From the NCBI GenBank assembly GCA_965371155.1, contig CBDUXL010000002.1, forward strand, positions 1 through 42,129: 42,129 nt of DNA, given 5' to 3'. This DNA is from an uncultured bacterium. Its GTDB lineage: Bacteria > JAJVIF01 > JAPKYR01. The first letter of the stretch is position 1; each line of letters opens with the position of its first letter. Shown in pieces: positions 16,855 to 39,502 of this stretch. The notes beneath the pieces are model-generated. The model was not told the DNA's origin and ran no database searches. It was given only the letters and a program-made list of their open reading frames with translations. Position numbers and translations under genes: made by a program.

Positions 16855-16873
16855 AACGTTCAGGGATGAAAAC

Positions 16874-16895
16874 CCCCCGGGTATTGCACCGGGGG
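16874..16895 (-). terminator. GC-rich hairpin followed by GTTTTC just upstream of pilT (attenuator or stabiliser candidate)
   Basis: cccccgg (16874-16880) / 8-nt loop / ccggggg (16889-16895). On the minus strand it is followed by gttttcatcc and then the pilT ATG 19 nt later. Confidence 0.3.
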
Positions 16896-16945
16896 AACTA
16901 GTCAATAGGTTGGATTCACGAAACGTCCCGACTGCAGTTAACGCC

Positions 16946-18744: not shown

Positions 18745-18794
18745 TTTGACACCTCGGGTCTGGTGCAATTCAATAACGGCCTTTGCCGCCGGAA

Positions 18795-23717: not shown

Positions 23718-23845
23718 TAGAGGGCCTTGGCTCCTTGATGGCTTCCTGCCGGGCAACACACGAACAGTCAAGGATGATAAATATCCATGCCGCAAAGCTG
23801 GTCTATTTCAATGGTTGTCACTCTTTACTAATGTCACGCAATTAC

Positions 23846-24817
23846 CTAATAAAATGAGATTGAAATCCCGGAAATCCCGGGGTCGCTCTCGGTGAACAAA
23901 ATCGGCGCCCGGTCGCCGGACCGCGTTTCATTCGCTATCACAACCGCGCTCATGGTTATCTCTTCAACAACGAAAGATGTTCTCTCAGTCGCTTCGACCA
24001 CATCACCGACCTGAAACAAGCGCTGTTGACCGCCTCCGGCGATAATGGCCCTGTAGTTACCCGGTTCGCCGATAATGCCCACGATGGTCAGCATCCGAGC
24101 AACTTGACCTGCGGTAGGCTCATCAGGTGAGACTGGACCTTCACCGAGATCCAGGGGTGGAAACGGCGGAATCGAATGAATCGGCCCCGGTATCGTTCCA
24201 CCATCTCTTCCAAGGGCATCGAACGGGCTGTAGCGTCGCATGCCGGAATCCCAGGCCGGCACTTCATCCCCTACAGGATCCGGCGTTGGCGGGCTGGTCA
24301 TGACCTGGAAACGCCTTAAAATGGGCATCATCAGATCGGCTATCCTGGCTTCCCCACGCACCTCAGGCACCAGCATCAGGGCCTCCCGCAGCTCTTCATC
24401 CTCCATGTCCCTGAAGTCTTGGCCGCCCAGCCCTTCATACGAGATGTAATAGGTTGGCAACTCTACTCCGCCTGCAATCGAGACCTGAGCGGCTTCCGCC
24501 GACTCACCGGGAGGGAGTTCCTCCGGGATTTCAATCCCCGGTATCCCTTCAGCTTCTTGTTCCCGTACGGCCTCCTCGGCCATCTGCTCGGCGGCGGTGT
24601 CAAGACTTGACGCGCCTCCGTGTTCGGTAATGGTTTCAGCAACGCTTTCACCGATCCGAACAGGATTAACCTGAGCCCTGGCGGATTCGAGGACGCCGAA
24701 TCCGGGCTGGAACAGTACGAAGTAGCCGGCAATAGCCAGCACGAAGACGGCGGCATACCCAAAATAGCGAGCATGCGAACTGCGATCATCCGGTTGTGGA
24801 GCTTTTTGTTCGTTCAT
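23846..24817 (-). CDS. pilP: PilP-like protein (enlarged, 323 aa)
   Basis: N-terminal TM segment YFGYAAVFVLAIAGYFVLF, an acidic/Pro-rich middle, and a C-terminal PilP-type beta domain LTIVGIIGEPGNYRAIIAGGGQQRLFQVGDVVE...FVVEEITMSAVVI. It sits between pilO and pilQ. Confidence 0.7.
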   Translation of the reverse strand: MNEQKAPQPDDRSSHARYFGYAAVFVLAIAGYFVLFQPGFGVLESARAQVNPVRIGESVAETITEHGGASSLDTAAEQMAEEAVREQEAEGIPGIEIPEELPPGESAEAAQVSIAGGVELPTYYISYEGLGGQDFRDMEDEELREALMLVPEVRGEARIADLMMPILRRFQVMTSPPTPDPVGDEVPAWDSGMRRYSPFDALGRDGGTIPGPIHSIPPFPPLDLGEGPVSPDEPTAGQVARMLTIVGIIGEPGNYRAIIAGGGQQRLFQVGDVVEATERTSFVVEEITMSAVVIANETRSGDRAPILFTESDPGISGISISFY

Positions 24818-24895
24818 AACAGATCACCCACACTATACTATTCTCAAGTCAATTCAACTTGAGACCTGGTCACTCTCATCCTCCACGATTTGCTC

Positions 24896-25732
24896 CTAAA
24901 TCGCCTCGTCCGTTTCATCGACCCCATCCGCTCCGTCTTCAACGGAAACAACCCTTCCGTCCCGATGAGCCACCCAAAGCGGAGGGGGATCATTTGCATC
25001 GCCGAATGTCAAAAGTGTGAAATGGGCGGCATACTGGCGCATCGATCCGCTCCCGGCGCCCTGGGGCGCCATTTGGAAACTGACCAACGCAGTATGCGGC
25101 CGCATGTTGAAGATCTCGTATGTGAATCTCTTTATGTCCTTGTAGGTTCCGCGAACGGTCATGCGGAAGGAGTGCGTTTCTATTCCACCGGCGATTGCCG
25201 CATAATTCTCACCCTCAGTGCCAAGCTCCTGATAGAACCTGAAACTGACCAGCAGGTTCTGCATCTGGTCCATATTGTTCTCGAACATCTGCAGGGCGGA
25301 CATAATTTGGTCCAGCCGCCCCTGAAGCTCGGACGGGTCGGATGAGAAGGCCTCCTTGAAATTGGTCCCGGCTCCCGGCGCGGTAACGCCCAATATGGCG
25401 ACACCATCGGTATCGAGGTTATTGTCAGTCAACATAATGTGAATCGTGCTGAGATAGCTGGTCAGAACGAACTCGTCGGCTTCAGGGATAAGGTTGCGGA
25501 TGGTTTCCATGTCCTGCAGTTGGACCGTACGAATCTGCCTGAGCAGGTCCTTGTACCTCAACAGATCGATAAGCGCCTGGGCGATGGTGTTTTGGGTCGC
25601 CAATTCTGCCTGCCTGTTAGCGATGGTTCGAACGAAAAAGCGGTGGGCGGTCATGTTGTAGGCCACCTGCAACAGAAGGCAGACAACGATAACCACGGCG
25701 ATTTTAATTGCTATTTTCGCATATGGATTCAC
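24896..25732 (-). CDS. pilO: PilO-like protein
   Basis: N-terminal TM segment IAIKIAVVIVVCLLLQVAY, a coiled-coil region, and a C-terminal ferredoxin-like pattern HSFRMTVRGTYKDIKRFTYEIFNMRPHTALVSFQMAP. The gene order also supports the call. Confidence 0.7.
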   Translation of the reverse strand: MNPYAKIAIKIAVVIVVCLLLQVAYNMTAHRFFVRTIANRQAELATQNTIAQALIDLLRYKDLLRQIRTVQLQDMETIRNLIPEADEFVLTSYLSTIHIMLTDNNLDTDGVAILGVTAPGAGTNFKEAFSSDPSELQGRLDQIMSALQMFENNMDQMQNLLVSFRFYQELGTEGENYAAIAGGIETHSFRMTVRGTYKDIKRFTYEIFNMRPHTALVSFQMAPQGAGSGSMRQYAAHFTLLTFGDANDPPPLWVAHRDGRVVSVEDGADGVDETDEAI

Positions 25733-25762
25733 AGGTGGCTTAACACCTCCATGGCCGTCGGT

Positions 25763-26350
25763 CTAATCAGGGAACTTGACCTCCACATGAATCTGGAAAC
25801 TGGCGGCAGGACTGCCTCCCACGTTTATCCTCTGGTAGCCTGCCATGCGTATGTTGCGGAATCGCGTTGGTTCCTCAGGCGAGCCTTTCAGTCGATCGTA
25901 GGTTCTCAAGGGTCCATTGAAACCGTAGCCCCTTGACAGGCAGTCGACCACCACATCCGGCCACTTGCTGCCGCGTGAGCGACGAAAGGTCAAGTTTACA
26001 AGCCATGTGTCTTCAGGCAGGAGTCTCTCTATTTCATTGTAAATCTCCCAGTAGTCCGGAGCCTGAAGCACCATTCGAGGGATGACGGCAATATAGCTCC
26101 GAATAAAACGCGCGTTCGCCTGGACCTCAATAAACTCCTCAACCTGTTCCATACGCTCATGATTTGCCGCGGTTTTGGCTTCCAGCTCGTCCTTCAGGTC
26201 TTTGGCTTGCCTGGTTTCAGCCTGGAACTGCAGCCAGACAAAAAGCAGGGTTGCGATTAACAAGGCCGCGGCAAAAACCGGGAAGGCCTTGAACTCAGGC
26301 TCAGGCAAATACTCCTCAGGAAGGAGGTTGATTAATCGATCTCTATCCAA
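25763..26350 (-). CDS. pilN: PilN-like protein
   Basis: The conserved INLLP motif is at the N-terminus (MDRDRLINLLPEEY), followed by one TM segment FPVFAAALLIATLLFVWLQF. TTG start, with an 8-nt overlap with pilM. Confidence 0.8.
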   Translation of the reverse strand: MDRDRLINLLPEEYLPEPEFKAFPVFAAALLIATLLFVWLQFQAETRQAKDLKDELEAKTAANHERMEQVEEFIEVQANARFIRSYIAVIPRMVLQAPDYWEIYNEIERLLPEDTWLVNLTFRRSRGSKWPDVVVDCLSRGYGFNGPLRTYDRLKGSPEEPTRFRNIRMAGYQRINVGGSPAASFQIHVEVKFPD

Positions 26351-27560
26351 CCTGATGAATCCCCCTCAAAGCCAGGCCCACGGCACAACTGAAGTCCGGG
26401 GCGAAATCGCGTACCAGGTCTTCTCGAATGCCGCTCTCAGCCACACTGAGACCCGAGAGCGGGTCGCCGGAAATAACAGGTATTCCCAGCTTTTCCGACA
26501 TCGATCTAATAAACTGCTCCCCGTAAGGGAAGTAGCCATCAAGGACCCCGAACGCGATCTCAGACCGCTCCTTGCCGAAGGACTGGCCGTAGCGGATGGT
26601 GTTCAGGGTCTCATCGACAAGCTCAGTCATCAAGGGATTCAGCCTGGCAAGTTCATCACGATCCCCGATCCCCTCACGCGCCAGAGCCTCATCCCGCGCG
26701 GACATCTCGGCCGAAAACGGGTCCTCACCAAACGACCCAAACTCCAGATCCTCTTCACCGCGCCGCCCGATGCCGAGGTCTTCCTCCTCGGATCCTACAC
26801 GGGCAGCATGTTCCGCCATTCCGTCCGCGCCCAGGCCCGCGTCGAACAGGTGCTTCTCGCCGAGCGCGTCCACAAATCCAACGCTTCCAATCGGAATCGA
26901 GCGGAGTATCCTGACCTGCCCATCAAATACCACCGTCAGGTCGGTGCACCTATCGTTGATGGTTATGAGAATGTACTCTCCACCGCGCTCCTGAATCTTG
27001 GGGGACCGCCTCTCGGCGCGATGCGCCGCAACAGGTGTGAGATCCAGAGCTGCTGGACGCAGCCCCGCCTCCAGCATTGCCTCAACCAGAAGACCCAACG
27101 GCTGTTTCTGGGCCGAGAGGATGAGAACCTCGACTTTTTCCGTGTTGTCATCTTCGCTGACGTATGTGCGGAGGATCGCGTAGTCCAGCACATTGTCGCC
27201 GGTTCCCGACGGGAGGCTGGCCTCGGTCTCGAACAGGATTGCTTTCCTGAGCTCGCGGATAGGCATGTTAGGGAGGTTGATAGTGCGGGCGATGGTTTCG
27301 GATCCATCCACGGCGGCCAGCGCGATTTTGGTTCTGATGCGGTTGGCCTGGATCATACGAGCAAGTGCGGAGGCCAGAGCTCCCGGGTTCTCCAGCCGGT
27401 TGCCGATATAGGCCTCCGGCGGTGTTTCCTCCCATAGTATCTGGGTAACCAGGGGCTCTCGCGCGGTTCGCTCTATCTCGACAATCTTCACCTGCGCAGG
27501 CCCCACATGGATACCCAGCGCACGCCTGGGGGCAACATTTATAAACGGTAACGGTGTCAC
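26343..27560 (-). CDS. pilM: PilM-like actin-fold protein
   Basis: About 400 aa with an N-terminal phosphate-1-like LGIHVGPAQVKIVEIE. It lies directly upstream of, and overlaps, the INLLP-motif pilN. GTG start per the ORF track. Confidence 0.75.
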   Translation of the reverse strand: MTPLPFINVAPRRALGIHVGPAQVKIVEIERTAREPLVTQILWEETPPEAYIGNRLENPGALASALARMIQANRIRTKIALAAVDGSETIARTINLPNMPIRELRKAILFETEASLPSGTGDNVLDYAILRTYVSEDDNTEKVEVLILSAQKQPLGLLVEAMLEAGLRPAALDLTPVAAHRAERRSPKIQERGGEYILITINDRCTDLTVVFDGQVRILRSIPIGSVGFVDALGEKHLFDAGLGADGMAEHAARVGSEEEDLGIGRRGEEDLEFGSFGEDPFSAEMSARDEALAREGIGDRDELARLNPLMTELVDETLNTIRYGQSFGKERSEIAFGVLDGYFPYGEQFIRSMSEKLGIPVISGDPLSGLSVAESGIREDLVRDFAPDFSCAVGLALRGIHQVG

Positions 27561-27847: not shown

Positions 27848-28468
27848 CTAGTCTTCCGCCCCGCCTCTACGGGATACGAAGAGGTTAAAAAGCCTGAAAT
27901 CCGTTCCCTCAGGGCCCCTTCTCGGTCGGACCGCGACCCAGCCGGAATCCGGATTGGTCCCTATAGCCAGCAAATCACGCTGGAAGTTGTACGGGTGGAA
28001 AATAATAAAATATGTACTCGCCCGAGAAGTGGTCGGGTCGTACGGATTGAACTCGACAATTTCAACTGCATAATCCTGTGTTATACCGAACAGGTAGCCG
28101 GTGGACTCATCGTATTCATCTTGACTGCCGTCTTCAATTGCCCTGAAGTAACCCGGCAGATAGTCCTCCGTCACCATGAAATCCACCAGTTCCTTTGGGG
28201 ACTGAAATTCCTCATCCAACCCCCACTGCGGGTACTCAAGATAATGGTAATAATACATTTCATACCCGGTAGCGAACGAATCCAGCGCACCAAGAGCATT
28301 GGTCTCCACTACCTGAGTCCGCATACGACCGATCAGGGCGAAGGAAATGGCGGCCAGGATGGAGATAATACCGCAAACGACAAGAAGCTCGGCGAGAGTG
28401 TATCCTCTCTTGCTGTTTGGCGGTAAAGGGAAAACCCAATGGTCTCTATATCGACTCAATATCTCCAA
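27848..28468 (-). CDS. Type IV pilin-like protein, tandem paralog 1 of 12 (window order)
   Basis: ...NSKRG|YTLAELLVVCGIISILAAISFALI, a prepilin cleavage/methylation motif with Glu5. There is no ATG after the upstream stop. In-frame TTG codons lie at 28468 and 28459, so the start is uncertain. Confidence 0.7.
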   Translation of the reverse strand: MEILSRYRDHWVFPLPPNSKRGYTLAELLVVCGIISILAAISFALIGRMRTQVVETNALGALDSFATGYEMYYYHYLEYPQWGLDEEFQSPKELVDFMVTEDYLPGYFRAIEDGSQDEYDESTGYLFGITQDYAVEIVEFNPYDPTTSRASTYFIIFHPYNFQRDLLAIGTNPDSGWVAVRPRRGPEGTDFRLFNLFVSRRGGAED

Positions 28469-28490
28469 ACCTTGATTCTTTCCAACCCGG

Positions 28491-29075
28491 CTAGTCAGGC
28501 AATATGTAGATGCTGATGCTGTATCGCCCGGTCCGTCCGATCTTCCTGGGCAGCGGACCCGGGTAGTTGCTGAACATCCTGGGTCCCTGAATGACCACCA
28601 GTCCCCGCTTCGCAATTGACCCCTCGTAGGGAATCATCGCAATGGCATAGGTGTTCCTGTAGCCCATACCGGGAACAACGCCGTAATCGGCGGGATAGAT
28701 GCTCATCCGATAGCCCCTGGCGAAGAGATCCCGTCTGTCATGAAGTTCCCTGGAGTACCTGTGGGGCACGAGGCTGTAAAGCCTCAGTTGATCCCAGAGA
28801 GGCTCCGGGGCAGAGAATTCCACGTCTTCGGTAATCGTCCCATCCGATAGGTAGTTGGGATACCTATGGCCGTACTGCGCGTAGTAGTTCTCGTAGGCCA
28901 TGCTCATCATGTTGAGCGCCCTGATTGCCTCGACCTCATACACCTTCTCACGACTTCGTCTGAGAAGGGCGATAGGCATAGTGGCGATGATGAGCAGAAG
29001 CCCGGTCACTATGAGCATCTCCACGAGCGAATAACCCGCTGAGGGCCGTATGTCGTTATCCGAACGATGCAACAT
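28491..29075 (-). CDS. Type IV pilin-like protein, tandem paralog 2 of 12
   Basis: MLHRSDNDIRPSAG|YSLVEMLIVTGLLLIIATMPIALL. Confidence 0.8.
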   Translation of the reverse strand: MLHRSDNDIRPSAGYSLVEMLIVTGLLLIIATMPIALLRRSREKVYEVEAIRALNMMSMAYENYYAQYGHRYPNYLSDGTITEDVEFSAPEPLWDQLRLYSLVPHRYSRELHDRRDLFARGYRMSIYPADYGVVPGMGYRNTYAIAMIPYEGSIAKRGLVVIQGPRMFSNYPGPLPRKIGRTGRYSISIYILPD

Positions 29076-29096
29076 CTTCCGACACCATATCCCGCA

Positions 29097-29543
29097 TCAC
29101 CTGACAGGTTCCCAATTGTCATACATCGGTATGCCGTCGTCCGAGATTATGAACGTACTCAGACGGAGAGTATGATCAGTTGGATATGCGTAAACGGTGT
29201 AGCGCTGGGCCTGATAGGCGGTAGCCATGGCGATAGAGTAGTTCTCGATAAAGAAGTGCTTGTGTCCCTCAGCTCCCCAGCCGGAGTATGCCCGGGGCAG
29301 GTAGTCATCCAGTTCCGACCAGTTATCGGTATAGGCGAAGTTATCACGGTAGTACATCTCCTCAGCATCGGTGAGGCTTCTGAGGGCTTTGACACAGGCC
29401 GCTTGCAGCGCGCTTTTCCGGGAACCGGCCAGGGATGGAATCGCGATGGCAGCCAGGATACCGATAATGCTGGCAACCACGAGGACCTCGACAAGCGTAA
29501 AACCCAGCGAATCGCGTTCCTCATTTTTCAGGCATCTCAACAT
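29097..29543 (-). CDS. Type IV pilin-like protein, tandem paralog 3 of 12
   Basis: MLRCLKNEERDSLG|FTLVEVLVVASIIGILAAIAIPSL. GGAGG lies 6 nt upstream of ATG 29543. The ORF-track start is 29624. Confidence 0.8.
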   Translation of the reverse strand: MLRCLKNEERDSLGFTLVEVLVVASIIGILAAIAIPSLAGSRKSALQAACVKALRSLTDAEEMYYRDNFAYTDNWSELDDYLPRAYSGWGAEGHKHFFIENYSIAMATAYQAQRYTVYAYPTDHTLRLSTFIISDDGIPMYDNWEPVR

Positions 29544-29631
29544 TTCTTGCCTCCGCACCCGGTACTCAGCCGGGCGCCGCTGCGTCCCTTGGTTGGACGC
29601 TTGCTTTCCTTTTTCCCCGCCCACCCGCTAT

Positions 29632-30132
29632 TTAATCCTTGAACAAGGTCGAGAAAAATTTGCCATGATTGTGCGAATCCAGAATGCTCCCGTCGCATGT
29701 CACTGCGTACGTCCTCAAGTGCCAGATGGACCTTTCAGCCGGGAAAGCCACCGCGGTAAAAGATTGGCGATGCTCGGGCACCAGGAAAAAAATAGTGTAG
29801 AGATTGGCGATCGGAGTATCTCTCGGATTGGACAGGTCATCGTCTTTGTCATAACCCGGGTCCACCAGATCCTCTTCGCGCTTCATCTCCTCCCAGTACC
29901 CGTACTCGCCGTGGCGCTGATAGTAAAGGACCTCATTCTCGCCGATGTTCTTCATGGCGGCGATCGCGCGCGTCTCGAATGCGATGCGCTTCGCACCCCG
30001 GGTGCTCACCACAGCCATCGATGCGAGGATAACAATAATGATGGCAACCATCAATACCTCGATCAGCGTGAAACCCTTCTGTTGAGCGCCCTCATCGAGT
30101 CCAGGCTCTCTCATGTCCTCAGGATCTGACAT
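29632..30132 (-). CDS. Type IV pilin-like protein, tandem paralog 4 of 12
   Basis: MSDPEDMREPGLDEGAQQKG|FTLIEVLMVAIIIVILASMAVVS. There is a purine-rich GGGAAGGAAAG upstream of ATG 30132. Alternative ATG at 30162. Confidence 0.8.
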   Translation of the reverse strand: MSDPEDMREPGLDEGAQQKGFTLIEVLMVAIIIVILASMAVVSTRGAKRIAFETRAIAAMKNIGENEVLYYQRHGEYGYWEEMKREEDLVDPGYDKDDDLSNPRDTPIANLYTIFFLVPEHRQSFTAVAFPAERSIWHLRTYAVTCDGSILDSHNHGKFFSTLFKD

Positions 30133-30163
30133 CACTTTTCTTTCCTTCCCGCCGTGTGCCATC

Positions 30164-30649
30164 TCAGTATGGTGACCAGTTTGCCAAGGTGTGCACTATT
30201 TGCACGCCTCCGGAATCCGTAATCACGAAGGTCTTCAGCTCCGGGATTCGCGGGACGGCGAAGACCGTATAGCTGTGAACGGAGAAATTGGTGATGGGCG
30301 GGCGGGGACCGCCACCACCGCCGCGGATCCAGTGAAGCGAGTAGTTCTTGACAAACACGTACTGGTCCGCGTCTTGCTCGTAGGCGCGCGGCAGGTAGGT
30401 CCTCGCCAGAGCGCTGAACCCGAGGGCATAGCGCCCATTGTCGATGTAGAAAATCTCCTGGGCGCTCGCAATTGCCTTAAGGCCCGTTGCAGCGCCGGTT
30501 TCGAGTGTTTTGTAGCGCGCCTGGGACATGCTCGCGATTGCCAAAGTGGAAAGGATCGCTATCAGAGTAGCCACCAGGACCATCTCGATCAGGGTGAATC
30601 CTGATTCGTCCTTGTCAGCGCGCTCGGGTTTATCTGGATTCCGGTTCAT
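30164..30649 (-). CDS. Type IV pilin-like protein, tandem paralog 5 of 12
   Basis: MNRNPDKPERADKDESG|FTLIEMVLVATLIAILSTLAIASM. Alternative start at 30673. Confidence 0.8.
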   Translation of the reverse strand: MNRNPDKPERADKDESGFTLIEMVLVATLIAILSTLAIASMSQARYKTLETGAATGLKAIASAQEIFYIDNGRYALGFSALARTYLPRAYEQDADQYVFVKNYSLHWIRGGGGGPRPPITNFSVHSYTVFAVPRIPELKTFVITDSGGVQIVHTLANWSPY

Positions 30650-30709
30650 GGTTGTCTTACCTTTTCCCGCCACGACATTTACAGCCGGTCTAATGGTCGG
30701 GAACCAGGC

Positions 30710-31222
30710 CTAAATCGGCCTCCACTGCGTTATCCCTTGTGAATATCTCCGACCCTCGACAACTCCCCTGTCGGTAATTCTGAGTTCCAGCCAGTCGCTG
30801 ATTTCGTACCGATGGCGATAGATGCCCTTCGCCCTGATCGAGTAGCGCTGCGGGGTAATCGGGTTCACATACCAGAAGCACGTGAAGCCCTGGACAAACG
30901 CAATTGAGCGCTCCTTGATGGGCGAATCGGAGAGAACGAAGTCGGGATCGATGTAGCTCGGTTGAAGGCCGCCAAAGTCGAGCGCGTAATAGCCGTTGTC
31001 GTTGTAGAACGCTTCCAGGGCGGACGCCAGTTGTTTCATCTGATGCATGCCCTGGGTTTCCAGCGCCCGTTGCCGCGCCTTACGGAATGAGGCAAACCCG
31101 AAGGTGGCGATGACGGCGATAATCAGCGCCACGGTCAGCACCTCGACCAGCGTGAAACCGGTTTCATGCTTCTCTTCGACCTTCAATTTCTCTATCTCAG
31201 CTATTTCAGCCATAATGGCCAT
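30710..31222 (-). CDS. Type IV pilin-like protein, tandem paralog 6 of 12
   Basis: MAIMAEIAEIEKLKVEEKHETG|FTLVEVLTVALIIAVIATFGFASF. The ORF-track start at 31315 overlaps the upstream gene, so ATG at 31222 or 31213 is more likely. Confidence 0.75.
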   Translation of the reverse strand: MAIMAEIAEIEKLKVEEKHETGFTLVEVLTVALIIAVIATFGFASFRKARQRALETQGMHQMKQLASALEAFYNDNGYYALDFGGLQPSYIDPDFVLSDSPIKERSIAFVQGFTCFWYVNPITPQRYSIRAKGIYRHRYEISDWLELRITDRGVVEGRRYSQGITQWRPI

Positions 31223-31259
31223 CCCGGGCCCGCCCTGACATTCAGTATGATATAGAGCA

Positions 31260-31754
31260 TCAACGAGGCACCCAATTGATGCCATCGCGTGTCTGCTCGA
31301 CTGTTCCGTCCTCAAATATCCTGAACGTGTGCAGGTTCAATGAGTTGCCTGCGTCCGGGAATGCGACGTAGGCAAACCCGTAAGTGAAATCCTTGAAAGT
31401 ATCTCTCACGAAAAAGTGGATGGAGTAATGTTTCGCCATGCGCTCGCGATCGGTGATACCGTGCTTTCGCCAGTGAGAGTTGACGAACTCTCGCTGGCGG
31501 AGACCCTCAAAGGAGGTGAAGTGCCTGAATACGCTTCTGTACCCGATCTCAGCCGAGCCGAGCGCGTTCAAAGCCTTAATTGCCCCAAGCTCGTAAGCGG
31601 ATCGTTTCACCCCGCTCAATTGAGGAAGCGCCATGGCCACGATCACCGTGATAATCGAAACCACCAGGAGGATTTCAAGCAGCGTGAATCCGCGACCTTC
31701 CTCTTTTTCATCCGACCTTTCGACCGGGATCTCATTCAGCATATTTCCGCGCAT
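31260..31754 (-). CDS. Type IV pilin-like protein, tandem paralog 7 of 12
   Basis: MRGNMLNEIPVERSDEKEEGRG|FTLLEILLVVSIITVIVAMALPQL. Confidence 0.8.
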   Translation of the reverse strand: MRGNMLNEIPVERSDEKEEGRGFTLLEILLVVSIITVIVAMALPQLSGVKRSAYELGAIKALNALGSAEIGYRSVFRHFTSFEGLRQREFVNSHWRKHGITDRERMAKHYSIHFFVRDTFKDFTYGFAYVAFPDAGNSLNLHTFRIFEDGTVEQTRDGINWVPR

Positions 31755-31811
31755 GGTTTTTCTCCGTCTGTCGACAAACCAGCTATCAAACGCAACTGCC
31801 GATTGCCCGCC

Positions 31812-32348
31812 CTAGTATGGCGTCAGGCGATCGTCCTTCGTGATAACACCGCCCGGATCGAGGTAAAAGGTGCTCAAACCCAGATGTTGCTGGATCGGGA
31901 CCGCCATGAGCACAAAGTTCTTGCTCCCCCATCTATCGGGTGCGGATGAGCTCCATCCGCCGAAACCACCGCCGGGTTCTTCATCGGACGCATCCGGGGC
32001 GTAGCCCCAGGCGAACAGGCGATATCCCTTGATGAACTGATTCTCGGCATGCCGGATGTAATAAGTATCCGGAAGGAACCGATCTATCTCCCGAAAGAAC
32101 AGCCTGCTTGGCTCGGTAGTGTGCACGGGATAGAATCCCATCTCTCGATAGTACAGCTCGAACGCCTCTTGAATAACCTTCAAACCCTTGACCGCGCCCG
32201 CTTCCTTCACAACCTTCTCGACCTTCCGTGTCGCCGGGATTGCGAGGACGGTAATAAGCGCTATGATGCCGATTACAACGAGCACCTCCAGCAACGTAAA
32301 GCCTCGTTGGCGTCCCGGACTTGAGTTTCTTACAGTATTCATTTTCAT
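31812..32348 (-). CDS. Type IV pilin-like protein, tandem paralog 8 of 12
   Basis: MKMNTVRNSSPGRQRG|FTLLEVLVVIGIIALITVLAIPAT. Confidence 0.8.
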   Translation of the reverse strand: MKMNTVRNSSPGRQRGFTLLEVLVVIGIIALITVLAIPATRKVEKVVKEAGAVKGLKVIQEAFELYYREMGFYPVHTTEPSRLFFREIDRFLPDTYYIRHAENQFIKGYRLFAWGYAPDASDEEPGGGFGGWSSSAPDRWGSKNFVLMAVPIQQHLGLSTFYLDPGGVITKDDRLTPY

Positions 32349-32376
32349 GTCCCAGCCGTAAGAATTGTCCTGTCAC

Positions 32377-32868
32377 TCAGTAAATCGCAATCGGCCACAG
32401 CGTATTTGTGTCACGTACGACGCCGTCATTGATGATAAGAAACGTCTTGAGATCGAGACCGCGTTCGATCGGCCAGGCAACGATAGAGTAATTCTGCGGG
32501 TACTCGCCAATATTAATCAATTGTATCGAGTAGCCCTTGATGAAGTAACCGCGCCGTCCCGAAAGTCTGTTATACGCCTTCGCATCAATTGCATCACACC
32601 GCCTCAAGTCGTGCCACTGGTCATGACCGGCGGTGTAGCACTGGTAAACCTGGTAGTACAGCTCCTCCGCCTCAGCCAGTTGTTTGAGACCGTGAACCGC
32701 CCCGGTCTCAAGCGCATTCCGCCTGGCATGCTGGAGGTTGGGAATAGCCATGACGGCCAGAATGCCTATCAGGCCGACAGCGAGCATGATCTCAAGCATC
32801 GTATAACCACGAGCATCCTGATGGTCCTCGGATTCAAGTGGCGTCTTTATTTCCTGCGAATCAGCCAT
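32377..32868 (-). CDS. Type IV pilin-like protein, tandem paralog 9 of 12
   Basis: MADSQEIKTPLESEDHQDARG|YTMLEIMLAVGLIGILAVMAIPNL. Confidence 0.8.
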   Translation of the reverse strand: MADSQEIKTPLESEDHQDARGYTMLEIMLAVGLIGILAVMAIPNLQHARRNALETGAVHGLKQLAEAEELYYQVYQCYTAGHDQWHDLRRCDAIDAKAYNRLSGRRGYFIKGYSIQLINIGEYPQNYSIVAWPIERGLDLKTFLIINDGVVRDTNTLWPIAIY

Positions 32869-32911
32869 GTCGTTCTCGCCGGTCGTTCGGTATCGCCGGC
32901 ACCCGGAGTCG

Positions 32912-33427
32912 TCAGTAGATCGTAACCGGCAGCCCGTTGACTTCCGCGCCCTCCCTGACAGGCGGCATCGCGACCAGCCTGTCGTTGTAGGTGCTTCCCG
33001 TTATGAACTTGTTGATGTTAAAAGTCCGCAGGCCCATTCTATTATAGCCGACGGGGGTCGCGATTACCTGATAGTATAACGAATTCGGAGTGTTTGGAGT
33101 GACAAAAGCCAGCGAGTACCGATCGATGAATGGCAGGACGCTCGCGGAGGTCACAGGGCTGCGGAACTCCCACTTCGTGGAGTAGCCTTTCGGAAGCAAG
33201 TTGGCGTCCACCAATTCCATGAAATCACCAAATCTCTCGTAGTCCGAGTAGAACCGGCTTTCAGCAAGGGCGATACGGTTCAGCCTCTGGATCGCGTTGT
33301 CCTCGAGCGCTGCCCGCCTCGCATGCATGTAAGACGGCAGGGCGAAGCTGGCAATAATGAGAATGATAATGCACACCGAGAGAATCTCGATAATGGTCCA
33401 GCCGTCATTTCTCCCAAGAATACCCAT
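32912..33427 (-). CDS. Type IV pilin-like protein, tandem paralog 10 of 12 (Trp at predicted +1)
   Basis: MGILGRNDG|WTIIEILSVCIIILIIASFALPSY. Confidence 0.75.
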   Translation of the reverse strand: MGILGRNDGWTIIEILSVCIIILIIASFALPSYMHARRAALEDNAIQRLNRIALAESRFYSDYERFGDFMELVDANLLPKGYSTKWEFRSPVTSASVLPFIDRYSLAFVTPNTPNSLYYQVIATPVGYNRMGLRTFNINKFITGSTYNDRLVAMPPVREGAEVNGLPVTIY

Positions 33428-33457
33428 TGACTGTCTATCAGCCTGATATCTCCATTG

Positions 33458-33955
33458 CTAGAATACCGGCCTCCCGGTATCGAGCCATTTCACAACACCG
33501 TCCTCTTCGACCTTCATGCTCCTGAGGCCGGCAATCCCGCCCATAGGGGTCCATCGCGGATACCATAAGTAAGGCTCGTCCACCACCGGCTCCGCAATGA
33601 TCTCAAAACCTCCCCCCTCCTTGTCTTTGTTGAACTCCAATTTGTATTCCAGGATAAACGCCGCTCGTTGGTAATGAAGCCGGTCGTCGTCTTCCAGGAA
33701 ATCCCAATCGACATAGCCTTCTCTCTGAAGGTCGTCGAAGTTCGCATACTCCCCAAGTTCGCGGGAGTACAAGTCCTCCCAGATAGCAAGCTGTGCAAGC
33801 CTCTGGGCGCAGTAATGCTCCTTGGCACGACGCTTGACTTCGAGGTACTGCACGGTGCCGACGGTGACGAGAATCGCCACGATGGTGGCCACGATAAGCA
33901 CCTCCATCAGCGTGTATCCTCTTTCAGACTTGTATCTATTCACTGTGCCTGACAT
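33458..33955 (-). CDS. Type IV pilin-like protein, tandem paralog 11 of 12
   Basis: MSGTVNRYKSERG|YTLMEVLIVATIVAILVTVGTVQY. ATG 33955-33953 overlaps the upstream stop 33957-33955 (TAATG coupling). The ORF-track start is 34012. Confidence 0.8.
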   Translation of the reverse strand: MSGTVNRYKSERGYTLMEVLIVATIVAILVTVGTVQYLEVKRRAKEHYCAQRLAQLAIWEDLYSRELGEYANFDDLQREGYVDWDFLEDDDRLHYQRAAFILEYKLEFNKDKEGGGFEIIAEPVVDEPYLWYPRWTPMGGIAGLRSMKVEEDGVVKWLDTGRPVF

Positions 33956-34500
33956 TATCGCCCTCTCCACGGTCCTAAATCTCCTTCTTGACGCCTGTAC
34001 CACGTCTTCCAATAGACCTCCCCGTCCTCCTGCATATAGAAGGTTCTCAATTCGGGAGTGTGCCTGAGCGGAATCGCCATGATCAGATATTGGAAGGTGT
34101 CCGGCTCCGATTCATCGTCCTTGCTGTTTCGCATGAATTCCAGGCGGTAATATGGGATAAATGCGTTGACCGTATGCCGTCTCTCATCGGACTGCTCGTA
34201 AAAGTCCGGAACCAGGTTGGCATTCTTTAAATCGAAAAACGTGGCGTAGGTGCCCTCCGGATTCAGGGTCGGGTCGTTTGAGAAACGAAAAGTGTGCTCC
34301 AGTCTGGACAACTGTTTCAGTCGCTGCACGCAGGTTTCCTCGATCGCGAACCTCTTTTGGAACTTCATCATCGCCTGAGTAGCCATGACTAGAATGATCA
34401 TAAGTGCGGTGACGCCGAGGATCTCAATCAGCGTGTAACCGGTCTGGGGCCCGCGATCGCGACTTTCAGGAATTTCGTATGTTTCTCGCTCCGTATCCAT
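33955..34500 (-). CDS. Type IV pilin-like protein, tandem paralog 12 of 12
   Basis: MDTERETYEIPESRDRGPQTG|YTLIEILGVTALMIILVMATQAM. Confidence 0.8.
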   Translation of the reverse strand: MDTERETYEIPESRDRGPQTGYTLIEILGVTALMIILVMATQAMMKFQKRFAIEETCVQRLKQLSRLEHTFRFSNDPTLNPEGTYATFFDLKNANLVPDFYEQSDERRHTVNAFIPYYRLEFMRNSKDDESEPDTFQYLIMAIPLRHTPELRTFYMQEDGEVYWKTWYRRQEGDLGPWRGR

Positions 34501-34545: not shown

Positions 34546-35247
34546 TTATTTCCCGAATGATTCCGCCTCCACGTCAGCAAAATCACCAGGCGGAAATTTT
34601 ACCCCGCCGTTGGGGTTACGCAATGTTGCGATGTACTCGCGCTGAACGATCGTGCCTCCCCGCTCGATGCTCAAGGTCATCGAGATTCTCTTAACCTCGG
34701 GAAGCTGATCGGTGAAGTTTCCCTCCGAATCAGCGTAGTCGAACATAAGATTTGCGATACCTGATGTGAGACTGGTGGTGCCCTGCTCCTTAATGGTCCC
34801 ATTCTCTCTCACCACCACCACGGTTCGCATCAAGTAGCTTTCCCTGATGAACGTACCGTACTTTAAGATGAACACGCCGTACCTGACCTTATATCGCACC
34901 CAGATCTCTTCGCCGTCCGGACCCGGATAACCGAGAATAAGGTATAAAGGGTTTGTGGTTTCTCGAAGGACCATCGCACCCGTTTCGTCATGCGTCTCCT
35001 CGTTGTAGAACCAGACAGCGGACTGCACATCGCTGATAAACTGGTTCATTACACACTGGTGACCGAACTGCACGTTTTGGTCATTGGTCATCCTGTTCAA
35101 AGCCCCGAGACCCTCCAGAAGCCCCGCGACAATGCCGGCTGCAATCAATGTGGTCAGTCCGACAACAAGCAGGGTCTCCACCAGAGTGAATCCACGCTCG
35201 CTGAATCCCAGTTTTTCTTGTCCAATATTCATCCTGAATTCTGTCAA
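34546..35247 (-). CDS. Minor pilin-like protein (PilW/GspJ-like, 233 aa)
   Basis: ...EKLGFSERG|FTLVETLLVVGLTTLIAAGIVAGLLEG. The TTG start overlaps the upstream stop (TTGA). Alternative ATG at 35232. Confidence 0.7.
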   Translation of the reverse strand: MTEFRMNIGQEKLGFSERGFTLVETLLVVGLTTLIAAGIVAGLLEGLGALNRMTNDQNVQFGHQCVMNQFISDVQSAVWFYNEETHDETGAMVLRETTNPLYLILGYPGPDGEEIWVRYKVRYGVFILKYGTFIRESYLMRTVVVVRENGTIKEQGTTSLTSGIANLMFDYADSEGNFTDQLPEVKRISMTLSIERGGTIVQREYIATLRNPNGGVKFPPGDFADVEAESFGK

Positions 35248-36824
35248 TCCAAACCTACCCAGCGCACTTCAATCGCGTCTATGGCGAACCCATCGTAACC
35301 GTCATCGTAAGTGTTTCCTGAATCATTAGATTTGAAATGGATCACCAATGTGTCTCCCTGGATCCAGTCGGTCCAGTCACCGTTAATCGGGTACGGGTTT
35401 CCGCCGGCATCCTCCGGCGTTATCGTATCGCCGGGATCGGTGGGAACAGTAACCAAACGTCCCCTGATTTCGCTCGCACCGGGAACGGTAAACGGGAATG
35501 TGAAATCCTCGTTGTCTTCGAAAACAAGGTGTGACGGGAAGTCACGGAGATTAGGTAATCGATCCACCCTTGTCGGAGCGTTGCGATAGAAGCTCGTCTG
35601 GAACCATGCAATCCCGCGATCGTCATCCTGCCACCAGGTTTTTGTCTGCCACTCTTCGGAGCGAGGATTCGGCGCCACAGGGTGGAACTCCAGATCCACC
35701 CGGATAAGGTCTCCATGCCCGAGCCTGACCGACTCCACATCCGGAGCGATGACGTATGTCCGTCTGCCTAGATCGAACCCCGATTCCAGGTAGTTCGGGA
35801 AATACATTATCACGTTATCAAACTCTCCACGCCAGTCCTCGAGGTAGTAGGTCGCCTCGTTATAGCCATAAATCTCGATCTCAGCCACATAGGGCCAATG
35901 ATAATCCTTGTCAAAATCGGCGTAGGTATCGATTTTGTATACGCCGATGATGCCGGCTTCCAGCGGCGCCTCGGGCTTGTCGTAAATCATATGGATCCCG
36001 GATGAAGAATAGCCCAGGTTCTTTCCGAACGCGAGTGGGTTTGCATCCTGGAACCACGGATCGAAGACGTCCCCGACGCCGAGTATTCCGTCGGACCAGA
36101 AGAAATCGAAGTTGCGTTGCCAGATGTCCAGCTCGTGGGGAAGATAGTCGAAATCCTCATCCGGTACACCGAGAATCTCGGTCATGTTGAACCTGTTATC
36201 ATAAAGAATCCGACTGATGTAGGTCAGCTTAGGGAAAGCGCAATAAATGTACTGGTAATCCTTAGGACGGTTGTCTCCACCCCCTTCCGGATCGTCGCTG
36301 GGTCCCCCGGCGCCCGGATCCCCGCCCCCGATTGGGTCGTCTGTCACAGGGCCTTCATCACCACGATAGGCCAGCGCGTTCTCTTTTCCCATCCATCGGC
36401 TGTTCTCGTTGGCGCGCTTCCCATCGAAAGCATGGTGCCTGGAGAACCTGTCTCCAGGAGTGGGGAGATCATACGACGCCCCAACTGTGACGACCCCGTC
36501 GAATTCCGTGCTGATTGCGAGATCGCTGAAATAGTCGGGAACATCCTGAACGTACCCGACTTCGCCAGTCTTGAGGAACGGAACCCGTCCGAACTCGCTC
36601 GCCCGGAGGCTCTCGAACTCCAAACCGGCGAGGTAAACAAGACTGCCCTGATCGATAGCCATGCGGGACGTTATAGTGGAGGTCGAAAGGGCCATCAGGA
36701 ATCCCACCAGGGCTATACCCAGAACAACCGTGGATATAAGCACCTCGAGCAGGCTAATACCCCGCTGGTTGCGGACAGCGTCCAGGAGCCTGAAACCTCG
36801 TTTGTATGTACAAGAATCTGTCAT
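35244..36824 (-). CDS. Large minor pilin-like protein (PilV-like N-terminus, 526 aa) with a C-terminal CUB-like module
   Basis: ...VRNQRG|ISLLEVLISTVVLGIALVGFLMAL. The C-terminus reads GDTLVIHFKSNDSGNTYDDGYDGFAIDAIEVRW. A Gly/Pro/Asp loop GGGDPGAGGPSDDPEGGGD is also present. Confidence 0.7.
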   Translation of the reverse strand: MTDSCTYKRGFRLLDAVRNQRGISLLEVLISTVVLGIALVGFLMALSTSTITSRMAIDQGSLVYLAGLEFESLRASEFGRVPFLKTGEVGYVQDVPDYFSDLAISTEFDGVVTVGASYDLPTPGDRFSRHHAFDGKRANENSRWMGKENALAYRGDEGPVTDDPIGGGDPGAGGPSDDPEGGGDNRPKDYQYIYCAFPKLTYISRILYDNRFNMTEILGVPDEDFDYLPHELDIWQRNFDFFWSDGILGVGDVFDPWFQDANPLAFGKNLGYSSSGIHMIYDKPEAPLEAGIIGVYKIDTYADFDKDYHWPYVAEIEIYGYNEATYYLEDWRGEFDNVIMYFPNYLESGFDLGRRTYVIAPDVESVRLGHGDLIRVDLEFHPVAPNPRSEEWQTKTWWQDDDRGIAWFQTSFYRNAPTRVDRLPNLRDFPSHLVFEDNEDFTFPFTVPGASEIRGRLVTVPTDPGDTITPEDAGGNPYPINGDWTDWIQGDTLVIHFKSNDSGNTYDDGYDGFAIDAIEVRWVGLD

Positions 36825-36842
36825 AAACCAAACTGATCTATC

Positions 36843-39422
36843 TCAATAACCACCCAGATTCCGGAATCGGAATGCCCTGGTTGGGTCGTCGGATCTGTCA
36901 TAGTACTGGTCGTAGGCGAGCATTGCGTATTCTTCGTAGTATTCCTTCACTTGAAGAATGTCGCCGTTGACGTAGCCGCAATGGTTGATCTCGAATCCCG
37001 AATGCCCGGCATTATCATCCCCGTCCCCGATCAGTTTCACCTGAGCGGTTGTACCGGGCACAAGCACCCAGCCGTAAGTGGCGTTCAAATCAATAACTGT
37101 TTCAGGTGAGGTTCCCAACGGATACTCAGGACCTGCAGCGCCCGGTCCGCCCCCGGGCTGCTCGCCTCCGGTGGGGTCATCCGGATTGCCGGGTCCTCCC
37201 ATATCCGGGAAATCGTCGGTGCTATCGGAAACGAGAGTTGCGATCAGGATTCCGTCGATATCATACACCTCGATTCGATCGCCCGGGTCGAGGTCATAAC
37301 TGTAACGGTCGAAATGCAGTCCGACCACCAATGCGTTCTTGTTCGTGTACCACCACTCCGAAGTCTCGAAAGCCTGATCTCCGAAGGCGGGATAGCTCAC
37401 ATTCGACGGGTAGTACACATCCGACCGGATAGTCGGCGGGGTGCTGTCATCATCATGGCCGTCGGATGTTGTGTATTCAATGGCGTCGATTCGATAGCCG
37501 AAGTTCTCGGGGGATACCTCATGGGCATCCTGCGCGTCGGAGATGAACTCGATCTCCAGCCTGTCGAAAATGCCGCAGTCGATAGGGTCGACGGAAAGAG
37601 TCCTGATGTCGCGGTACTGGAGGGGATTTGAAATAATGAACGGCCCCCAGAAACTGTCTTCATGAACATAATTAATTGTGAACCCCGCGATAGTCAGGGA
37701 TATCATGTCATTATTGAGAGGTCCACCGGAGCCGACAGTTAGATTCGTGCACTCGGAGAAGTAGACCTTCCAGTTGGTGAGCGTCCCCAACCCGCTCGGA
37801 TCGGTGGTATCCGGAACCGACGGCTGCCAGATGGTCATATAGCCGCCGATGTTGGTCGTCAGAGGCAAATACAGCGGTCCACCCATGTCAGGGATAGTGT
37901 AGGTGCCGTCGTTGGCGCCGAGAGAGGCAAGGTGCGGGGTCTGCACCAACGGCTGCTCTCTTCTCTGCCAGTTGCCGTTCCTATCGGTGTACTCCATCGC
38001 CTCGATCTTGAACCCGTAGTCGGGGAGGCCATCCGTGTCGAAATTGGCCCCTCTGTGGAGCAGGAGAACAAAGCCCAAGGGGACCGTCGTATCCATGCGA
38101 TTGATTACCGGTGAGAAACCTCCCGGAGGCAGCGGATTTCCAGAGTCGTAAACCTCCACTGCACCCACCCCCATTGGCTCGGAGGCATTGAAAAGGTACA
38201 GCGTGTCGGCAGGATCAAGCGAGCAGAAATCCGAAAACTGGATGGTCATCTGCTGGGCTACAGCCATCGGGGATGCCGGGGCAGCCTGGAACTCGCCGTG
38301 GATGACCATGACGTTCAGGTTGGCGGCAGTGGTGACATCGATTATGTGATCGTAAGGATGCGGAGTCTCATAGTAAGACGGAAAAGCGTCGTAGTCGAAT
38401 TTGTATCTGACGCCGCTCACCCTGAAGCCGTAGTCCAGTCCGTCCGCCGGAGGGGCCGGTCTTGCCGAAAGATATAAGCCGATTGTAGTGGTGAGAAAAT
38501 AATCTGTGAAGACCTCACTAAGTACGTTCTCAAAGCCGCTATGGCTTTGCGGCGGCGGATTCTGGAATTGACCGGCACCAGCAAGCCACGGGGAAATGTA
38601 AAGAGTGTCGCCGCCGTGGATCTGGACCCTACCGATTTTGGCCATCAGAGCGAGATGGGTCAGGTTACGATAAGGATGTCGAGGGTCCTGCTGGTAAGTA
38701 ACCGACCACGCGCGAGCGATGTCGGGCGGGTACGGGTGCTCGGTCTGGATATACGGGTACGGTCCAAGGCGTGACGACTCAGTGATTCCCGCCTCGCGGA
38801 CATCGTAGTTCCATTGCACGTTTGGGTATTCGCCACGAAGGAAACTGAACAACGCGGTATCGCCATCGGGTTCGTCCACCTCGCCTACCCCAAATACCAC
38901 CAGGTCGCCCGTCGATTGCCTCTGAGCGAACTCGTACCCCGGGAAATCCTCACTGAATGTGAGATCATCGTGGTATCGATAAATCGCATTGTCCCTGTCG
39001 CCGGGGACAATATCGGTCTCGGGATAATACGCGCTTATGCTGGTGTCAACGCTGTAAGCCGTTCGGAGCGTTGTAACCGGGAAATCCTCGATTTCTTCCT
39101 CGTAGGATACACCCTCGGTCAGAAGTGTGACTTTCAGCAGGTCCTCGGAAGTGGTGGAGACCTCAAAGGGGTCGATATAACCCGGGGTGATGTACTCCGG
39201 GTCCACCAGGAGGCCGTAAGCGCCCTCATGCATGGCTCCCTCAGCAACCTGGCGGGCGACAAATGAGTGCCGATGTGTGTCGGTGGATTCAAGCGACTTT
39301 ATGCTTACTGCGAGGGTTGTGTAGGCAAGAACGGCGAAGATGCCGGCGATTATGAGCACGACGATCAATACGACCCCTCGTTCACCAGAAATCCTCCTAT
39401 CAAGTTTTACAGGAATCGGCAT
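36843..39422 (-). CDS. Giant PilX/GspK-like minor pilin (about 860 aa, no Glu5) carrying four CUB-like modules
   Basis: MPIPVKLDRRISGERG|VVLIVVLIIAGIFAVLAYTTLAVS, with a hydrophobic N-terminal helix but Val rather than Glu at +5. Module ends are DYGFRVSGVRY, DYGFKIEAMEY, NFGYRIDAIEY and HSGFEINHCGY. Module starts are TEHPYPPD, TPHPYDH and YPSNVSYP. The ORF-track GTG at 39482 lies only about 10 nt from the predicted sigma-54 transcription start, so ATG 39422 is preferred. Confidence 0.7.
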   Translation of the reverse strand: MPIPVKLDRRISGERGVVLIVVLIIAGIFAVLAYTTLAVSIKSLESTDTHRHSFVARQVAEGAMHEGAYGLLVDPEYITPGYIDPFEVSTTSEDLLKVTLLTEGVSYEEEIEDFPVTTLRTAYSVDTSISAYYPETDIVPGDRDNAIYRYHDDLTFSEDFPGYEFAQRQSTGDLVVFGVGEVDEPDGDTALFSFLRGEYPNVQWNYDVREAGITESSRLGPYPYIQTEHPYPPDIARAWSVTYQQDPRHPYRNLTHLALMAKIGRVQIHGGDTLYISPWLAGAGQFQNPPPQSHSGFENVLSEVFTDYFLTTTIGLYLSARPAPPADGLDYGFRVSGVRYKFDYDAFPSYYETPHPYDHIIDVTTAANLNVMVIHGEFQAAPASPMAVAQQMTIQFSDFCSLDPADTLYLFNASEPMGVGAVEVYDSGNPLPPGGFSPVINRMDTTVPLGFVLLLHRGANFDTDGLPDYGFKIEAMEYTDRNGNWQRREQPLVQTPHLASLGANDGTYTIPDMGGPLYLPLTTNIGGYMTIWQPSVPDTTDPSGLGTLTNWKVYFSECTNLTVGSGGPLNNDMISLTIAGFTINYVHEDSFWGPFIISNPLQYRDIRTLSVDPIDCGIFDRLEIEFISDAQDAHEVSPENFGYRIDAIEYTTSDGHDDDSTPPTIRSDVYYPSNVSYPAFGDQAFETSEWWYTNKNALVVGLHFDRYSYDLDPGDRIEVYDIDGILIATLVSDSTDDFPDMGGPGNPDDPTGGEQPGGGPGAAGPEYPLGTSPETVIDLNATYGWVLVPGTTAQVKLIGDGDDNAGHSGFEINHCGYVNGDILQVKEYYEEYAMLAYDQYYDRSDDPTRAFRFRNLGGY

Positions 39423-39502
39423 GCTCAATCTTGCCTCACGGTTCCGAGGGGCGCGAAGATGCAGCACCTTCCGCCGCTCCACGATGGAACCAGGTCGAAA
39501 AG

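Follow-up and report, generated by a model that had tools for sequence, protein, structure and literature searches.

Why would a bacterium keep twelve different prepilin genes side by side at a single locus? This question is raised by a stretch of 42,129 nucleotides (nt) from an uncultured bacterium (contig CBDUXL010000002.1 of assembly GCA_965371155.1), hereafter the window, in which a first-pass annotation made from the sequence itself had pointed to twelve consecutive, divergent prepilin paralogs and had suggested several alternative major subunits, a heteropolymeric fiber or a variation mechanism. Well-studied type IV pili have one major and four to seven minor pilins, and where more minor pilins exist they form, to our knowledge, alternative sets or are encoded by scattered genes. 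Judged from sequence comparisons, the array is ancient, fixed and under selection. We favor, with moderate confidence, the view that it encodes one major pilin and eleven co-expressed minor pilins, which would act together with three large tip proteins encoded upstream. In other words, the locus looks like a pilus of unusually many non-interchangeable parts and not like a variation system.

The array consists of 12 consecutive open reading frames (ORFs) on the minus strand, from 34500 to 27848 (ORF listing and translation), which we numbered in the order of transcription (Table 1); the first-pass annotation counted from the low coordinates, so that its paralogs 1 and 2 are pil12 and pil11 and its paralog 12 is pil1. 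All 12 products are full length, have their own signal peptide, keep Glu5 and share the prepilin signal G/[FYW][TS][LMI]xE (the slash marks the processing site) followed by a hydrophobic stretch. The class III signal motif is also present in two upstream genes, up526 and up233. A six-frame scan of the whole window yielded 14 matches to the motif, which lie between 28405 and 36761 and without exception on the minus strand, compared to a mean of 0.02 in 50 shuffles of the window, so that their occurrence is far beyond chance. Either Pfam N_methyl (PF07963) or TIGR02532 scores above cutoff for 9 of the 12 array proteins; at the Pfam cutoff of 21.2 bits, pil1 (15.2 bits) and pil11 (19.8 bits) fall short and pil3 has no match, none of the three being among the TIGR02532 matches. 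In the alignment, a post-helix E-x-[FY]-Y segment and a C-terminal L-x-T-F-x-[IVL]-x-x-D-G-x-[VI] strand are evident in pil1-pil10, the same ten copies for which such segments had been described, and weak in pil11 and pil12. The close spacing was confirmed as well: with the most plausible start codons, intergenic gaps range from -1 to 88 nt, and the pil1 stop and the pil2 start overlap as TAATG at 33955. The copies are indeed dissimilar at the DNA level, repeats between them being only 23-53 nt long with 60-87% identity, all in the part that codes for the N-terminal helix. Mature array proteins are 17-38% identical in pairwise comparisons, and their head domains, 131-184 amino acids (aa) long, are 14-37% identical. 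Together with three larger proteins encoded upstream (up879, up526 and up233), which the first-pass annotation had not included, the putative operon comprises 15 pilin-like proteins.

Table 1. Pilin-like genes, pilus machinery and associated sites in the window. dN/dS, ratio of nonsynonymous to synonymous substitution rates for the locus pair L013/L015; bits, profile scores; E, E-value.
Feature	Position	Strand	Description	dN/dS
Promoter-like site	39607-39579		upstream of up879	
up879	36843..39482	-	giant pilin-like protein, 879 aa; first gene of predicted pilin operon; likely start, Met at ~39422	
up526	35244..36824	-	526 aa; class III signal RG/ISLLEVL; N_methyl 24.0 bits (cutoff 21.2)	0.155
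up233	34546..35247	-	233 aa; RG/FTLVETL; outside the 12-member family; N_methyl 17.7 bits, below cutoff	0.229
pil1	33955..34500	-	TG/YTLIE; 1:1 orthologs, monophyletic in 39/40 bootstraps	0.142
pil2	33458..33955	-	ATG at 33955; longest ORF to 34012	0.324
pil3	32912..33427	-	DG/WTIIE; Pro22 present; 1:1 orthologs	0.165
pil4	32377..32868	-	motif, orthologs, clade	0.053
pil5	31812..32348	-	motif, orthologs, clade	0.093
pil6	31260..31754	-	motif, orthologs, clade; basic in all orthologs	0.095
pil7	30710..31222	-	longest ORF to 31315; basic in all orthologs	0.160
pil8	30164..30649	-	longest ORF to 30673; motif, orthologs, clade	0.119
pil9	29632..30132	-	longest ORF to 30162; motif, orthologs, clade	0.164
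Hairpin	29541-29585	-	CCCGG, 6-10 nt, CCGGG; directly 5' of the pil10 GGAGG	
pil10	29097..29543	-	candidate major pilin; longest ORF to 29624	
pil11	28491..29075	-	divergent, longer; sister of pil12 in 40/40 bootstraps	0.209
pil12	27848..28468	-	divergent, longer; longest ORF to 28615, but that start would overlap pil11	0.216
Promoter-like site	27722-27694		before pilM	
pilM	26343..27560	-	Pfam PilM_2 PF11104, E 3.6e-18, 66 bits (cutoff 27)	
Three ORFs	23846..26350	-	195, 278 and 323 aa; at the usual pilN, pilO, pilP positions	
Giant PilQ-type secretin	18795..23795	-	1666 aa; Pfam Secretin 8.3e-35 (120.3 bits), AMIN 4e-8 (33.7 bits), both above cutoff	
211-aa ORF	18133-18768	-	between secretin and pilT	
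379-aa ORF	16946-18085	-	between secretin and pilT	
PilT/PilU-family retraction ATPase	15757..17085	-	NCBIfam TIGR01420, 389.1 bits (cutoff 319.1)	

Our principal result comes from relatives of the source bacterium. We scanned one genome per species, using an alignment of pil10 orthologs as the query, and added contigs from a metagenome scan. A pil10 ortholog was found in 11 species-level genomes (L006-L016) labelled Planctomycetota bacterium or simply 'bacterium' (4 of the 11 NCBI records say Planctomycetota), and dozens of further orthologs, 53-73% identical, came from metagenomes. The relatives have the same layout: genes for proteins of ~890, ~530 and ~220 aa are followed by twelve small pilin genes, by pilM and three ORFs, and by the gene for a giant secretin. 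This layout was observed both in JGI and Logan contigs and in an NCBI metagenome-assembled genome labelled 'uncultured Planctomycetota bacterium'. All loci of sufficient length (L001, L004, L007, L009, L010, L012, L013, L015 and L016, and the metagenome contigs L089, L092, L095, L101, L106 and L111) have one copy of each of the twelve genes, always in identical order, and the partial contigs agree. A survey for copy-number variation had been proposed with the original description of the array; no such variation exists among these loci. Each gene finds its best BLAST match in the window gene at the same position, with the positional ortholog typically scoring 2-4 times, and down to ~1.3 times in the most distant loci, as high as the second-best paralog. 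This correspondence holds even though the orthologs are only ~35-60% identical to those of the window.

The alignment and phylogeny, another check proposed at the outset, lead to the same picture. In a neighbor-joining tree of 129 pilins and 3 outgroup sequences, all 12 positional groups are monophyletic, with support from 24-40 of 40 bootstraps. Two pairs of adjacent genes form sister groups (pil11/pil12 in 40/40 and pil1/pil2 in 27/40 bootstraps), which fits an origin by tandem duplication. These comparisons show that the duplications are older than the last common ancestor of the sampled clade. Selection could be gauged reliably for the locus pair L013/L015, synonymous sites in the other pairs being saturated; dN/dS is 0.05-0.32 for each of 14 genes, so that no copy is degenerate. 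With each gene at its own position and under purifying selection, the most straightforward interpretation is that there are twelve non-redundant roles and not a collection of spare or switchable copies.

These data bear directly on the idea that the copies are either alternative major subunits, each used under specific conditions, or material from which recombination varies the fiber surface. Many full-length copies side by side are what such a system might be expected to have. However, their number and order are invariant, their orthologs correspond 1:1 at ~35-60% identity, and the low dN/dS values give no hint of diversifying selection. Moreover, there are no long DNA repeats, silent truncated cassettes or invertible segments in the array, and neither promoter-like nor terminator-like sites within it are enriched over shuffled sequence. 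We therefore regard this explanation as highly improbable, and the variation mechanism suggested earlier, at odds with complete genes of invariant copy number and order, is not supported. Several other accounts of the array were also tried and rejected. A recent amplification or an assembly artefact is contradicted by the low DNA identity between copies and by the presence of the same array in independent assemblies (on both counts the earlier description of old paralogs was right), a copy-number-variable array by the invariant count and order, and a recombination cassette of the pilE/pilS type by the lack of truncated silent copies, repeats of at most 53 nt and invariant content.

If the twelve proteins have different roles, which of them builds the fiber? 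Several properties single out pil10 as the probable major, fiber-forming pilin. It is the shortest copy (130-136 aa when mature) and the best conserved one, with 65% overall identity among orthologs against 44-59% for the other groups. Its first 28 residues are 90% identical among orthologs, and it is only in the pil10 group that F1, E5, G14 and P22 are all conserved. The longest intergenic gap is the one before pil10. This gene also has a GGAGG ribosome-binding site with the strongest predicted duplex with the anti-Shine-Dalgarno sequence (median -9.5 kcal/mol), followed by pil2 (-8.5) and pil8 (-7.7). An AlphaFold2 model of pil10, built from an 88-sequence family alignment, has a mean predicted local distance difference test (pLDDT) score of 86.8 and a predicted template modeling (pTM) score of 0.71. 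It consists of a helix at residues 17-68 and four strands, and corresponds to the lollipop fold of pilins, a long N-terminal helix on a 4-stranded antiparallel sheet. In a Foldseek search, the best match of the model in PDB was Thermus thermophilus PilA4 (6xxd_A, E 9.7e-5, TM-scores 0.63/0.73, 29% identity), followed by PilX, a Shewanella pilin, ComP and the PAK pilin. An initial model from 17 close orthologs had pLDDT of 62 and gave meaningless fold-search results (E of at least 0.4); it was superseded by the 88-sequence model. Several alternative major subunits are unlikely also from this angle: the genes are tightly packed, internal sites are not enriched, and the full signature is confined to pil10.

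A different possibility is that several or all of the twelve pilins are abundant and co-polymerize into one heteropolymeric filament. All twelve do have Glu5 and a complete pilin architecture, are under purifying selection and appear to be co-transcribed. However, G14 and P22 are both kept only in pil10, and identity among orthologs in the N-terminal helix is 45-80% in the other groups as opposed to 90% in pil10. Heads that differ in length (131-184 aa) and are only 14-37% identical would also make equivalent packing hard; the two pilins of the heteropolymeric Streptococcus sanguinis pilus are far more alike than the array copies. That pilus, formed by the two similar major pilins PilE1 and PilE2 (PMC10628169), does set a precedent for more than one pilin in the filament body, but S. 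sanguinis is a monoderm with two close pilins, whereas here there are twelve at 17-38% identity and a diderm machine with a secretin. On balance, we consider such a fiber unlikely, though it deserves serious consideration.

The hairpin that directly precedes the pil10 GGAGG is kept in the closer relatives L001, L007, L008, L010 and L016 and absent from more distant ones. We considered it as a regulatory RNA; it has five pairs and no covariation, and we do not count it as evidence.

As for the rest of the locus, gaps of at most 88 nt, the stop/start overlap and the absence of site enrichment within the array lead us to infer co-transcription. All fifteen pilin genes would be transcribed from a promoter upstream of up879, the twelve array genes forming the core of a 15-gene pilin operon of a retractile type IVa pilus machine. 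If pil10 is the major pilin, the remaining eleven would be low-abundance, non-redundant minor pilins. Along with up879, up526 and up233, these minor pilins might assemble into the priming and tip complex and also decorate the fiber, each contributing a different surface, as the conserved charge of some of them (basic in pil6 and pil7, mostly acidic in pil1, pil2 and pil9) exemplifies.

The assignment to a type IVa pilus locus follows from the genes adjoining the array, namely those for a PilM_2 protein, an AMIN-containing secretin and a PilT-family ATPase. The gap between pil12 and pilM is 287 nt and holds a promoter-like site. Each of the three ORFs after pilM encodes an N-terminal membrane helix; searches of Pfam and NCBIfam gave no family match above threshold for any of them, the third having a faint T2SSC match (E 0.06). 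Their position, size and topology suggest that they are putative pilN, pilO and pilP. This machinery also bears on whether the pilins could form a periplasmic piston like the pseudopilus of type II secretion, and not a pilus on the cell surface. GspG and GspH models give the highest scores for the N-terminal helices, albeit below cutoff, the N-terminus of up879 is GspK-like, and a secretin is present. Nevertheless, a PilT/PilU ATPase above its curated cutoff, PilM_2 and an AMIN secretin are type IVa pilus features, and no GspC, GspL or GspM families were detected, making a pseudopilus very unlikely.

A more serious competitor places the major pilin elsewhere in the genome, together with pilB, pilC and pilD, and makes all twelve array proteins minor. 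Neither in the 42-kb window nor in ~10 kb of extra flanks in relatives are pilB, pilC and pilD found, the neighbors being housekeeping genes only; presumably, they lie elsewhere in the genome. The operon opens with tip-type proteins, as a minor-pilin operon would. Such an arrangement is familiar from Pseudomonas, where pilA-pilBCD lies apart from the minor-pilin and pilMNOPQ loci. On the other hand, no sequence hallmark of a major pilin is missing from pil10, and the structure that it matches best is that of a major pilin. In addition, the Thermus thermophilus pilA1-pilA4 cluster of four or five pilin-like genes has the major pilin, PilA4, inside (PMC5131608). The two systems are thus alike both in this respect and in the structural match of pil10 to PilA4, as well as in having small pilins without a disulfide-bonded D-region. 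They differ in that some of the Thermus genes are GspI-/GspJ-like, and these are not twelve paralogs of one family. Taken together, we find a major pilin outside the array doubtful.

The three large proteins at the start of the operon deserve separate mention. The N-terminus of up879, GERGVVLIVVLIIAGIF in translation, is GspK/PilX-like and lacks Glu5. The protein has no Pfam match, and its similarity to the NCBIfam GspK model is faint and limited to the N-terminus (E 0.0034, 17 bits against a cutoff of 130). Orthologs of 887-901 aa occupy the same position in L001 and L004; orthologs of up526 and up233 were found in 10 and 11 loci, respectively. For none of the 15 pilin-like proteins did any curated family among FimU, PilV, PilW, PilX and GspH-K score at cutoff, and no PilY1 domain was detected. 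A functional analogy to the core minor pilin/PilY1 priming complex is possible. In up879 there are four modules with a G[FY]x[IV]xAxxY-like strand at their end (near aa 350, 488, 660 and 827), and up526 has one such module at its C-terminus. The modules have no Pfam or NCBIfam match and may be repeated beta-sandwich adhesin-like domains.

It is tempting to speculate that the fifteen proteins, one copy of each and in invariable order, build a long hetero-oligomeric stem and tip of defined length. Such a stem could serve as a ruler or adaptor spanning an unusually wide periplasm, from the inner-membrane platform to the oversized, multi-AMIN secretin of 1666 aa, with the major pilin polymerizing beneath it. 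If this were the case, a fixed number of subunits would be a structural necessity, which would explain why there are exactly twelve in every relative. We nonetheless consider this idea quite improbable.

Returning to the reading that we prefer, one major pilin with eleven minor pilins and three tip proteins, a number of points weigh against it. The relative abundance of the twelve proteins is a prediction from genes and models. The ranking of ribosome-binding sites uses inferred start codons, and pil2 and pil8 are not far behind pil10. The structural model is that of pil10 alone, the fold of the other eleven proteins being extrapolated from the family alignment. The predicted leaders, 9-22 residues long with group medians of 13-22 (again with inferred starts), are longer than those of type IVa pilins, which typically have 5-7 and usually fewer than 10 residues. 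The GspK-, GspI- and GspJ-like labels of the three large proteins describe their N-terminal sequence only. Finally, neither the window nor the additional flanking DNA of relatives contains a separate pilA and, with pilB, pilC and pilD likewise missing from these regions, the true major pilin could be encoded elsewhere.

How does this locus compare with known pilus systems? In terms of numbers, a comparable system is the type IVa pilus of Myxococcus xanthus, which has PilA, 12 minor pilins and three PilY1 proteins; the minor pilins make up three alternative four-gene sets (FimU, PilV, PilW and PilX) at three loci, each with its own PilY1 (PMC7541494). The pilin totals are similar, and the minor pilins of M. 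xanthus serve as a priming and tip complex in which PilX lacks Glu5 just as up879 does. The M. xanthus sets, however, are heterologous, whereas here the twelve proteins belong to a single head-domain family encoded in one contiguous operon, with no PilY1 domain detected and nothing to suggest alternative sets. The locus resembles GspK/PilX-type systems in that large pilin-like proteins come first in the operon; one of them is GspK/PilX-like without Glu5, and they would cap the filament. In contrast to those systems, the 879- and 526-aa proteins are far above the typical GspK/PilX size, and eleven extra small pilins have no counterpart there. The phylum label also brings to mind the N_methyl + SBP_bac_10 (DUF1559) proteins, which have expanded in planctomycetes to 41 or more genes per genome (PMC8567305) and are another case of prepilin-signal proteins in large numbers. 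The array proteins differ from these in being half the size, clustered with pilus machinery and fixed in count, and no SBP_bac_10 domain was found in the 14 proteins scanned (Pfam, up to E 0.1). None of M. xanthus, Thermus and S. sanguinis has a contiguous, count-fixed array of twelve one-family paralogs, and in the literature on Planctomycetota, candidate phyla, tandem pilin paralogs and heteropolymeric pili we found no such array described. To a pilus specialist, so large a gene count, conserved across relatives, would be surprising, while the components are ordinary pilins in an ordinary machine context and their function is inferred. The locus offers a test case for how many distinct subunits a filament or a priming complex can accommodate, and for what purpose extra minor pilins serve.

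The window's chorismate synthase has ~25 relatives at 55-66% identity, several of them on contigs with the pilin array, and the next matches, Acidobacteria/Terriglobia-labelled proteins, drop to ~48%; this gap suggests that the source belongs to a deep, uncultured clade. Housekeeping genes make up what remains of the window, with shikimate dehydrogenase and 2-oxoacid:ferredoxin oxidoreductase next to chorismate synthase. When the twelve full-length proteins were used as a profile, 729 proteins matched at E of at most 1e-5; those that are named have only generic names ('prepilin-type N-terminal cleavage/methylation domain', PilE, PulG). In contrast, the profile of the head domain, searched against 1.84 billion cluster representatives, matched 251 at E of at most 1e-3 and 27 at E of at most 1e-10. 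Sequence comparison detected no relative of the head in PDB, where only the N-terminal helix had matches (geopilin, PilA and GspG). So few representatives and no PDB sequence relative indicate that the family is rare and structurally unexplored.

A few further observations concern individual components. All orthologs of pil6 (isoelectric point 8.2-9.7) and pil7 (9.1-9.9) are basic; the majority of the other groups are acidic, and so are most pil1, pil2 and pil9 orthologs. Charge is thus a conserved property of the position, and a role of pil6 and pil7 in DNA binding is one possibility. The only structural variant seen among relatives is an insert in the distant L111 (7691-8284), a 197-aa Pro-rich non-pilin ORF with a signal peptide, which lies between the pil6 and pil7 orthologs and leaves the pilin count at twelve; its C-terminus is similar to the PilP/GspC-type domain in the third ORF after pilM in the window. 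The secretin is more than twice the usual size, and those of relatives have at least 1524 aa; its N-terminal extension of ~1200 aa carries AMIN-like modules between long Glu/Pro-rich acidic linkers. The 379- and 211-aa ORFs between the secretin and pilT have a hydrophobic signal-like N-terminus and no family match, and may be lineage-specific parts of the machine.

Relatives of the array pilins also occur outside such arrays. Solo pilin genes of another lineage (L085:5208-5735 and L087:2415-2936) encode proteins ~37% identical to pil10 that share a C-terminal LRTF...DD...WEPLR motif. Their neighbors include genes for a response regulator, D-Tyr-tRNA deacylase and multihaem cytochrome/NrfD proteins; major pilin genes often adjoin a response regulator, a further point in favor of pil10 as the major pilin. 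The head domain is further found as 2-6 tandem copies in secreted proteins without a prepilin signal (P0183, P0188, P0195, P0200 and P0216), and some of these tandem-head proteins have weak ComP_DUS, Pilin_GH or DUF2950 matches.

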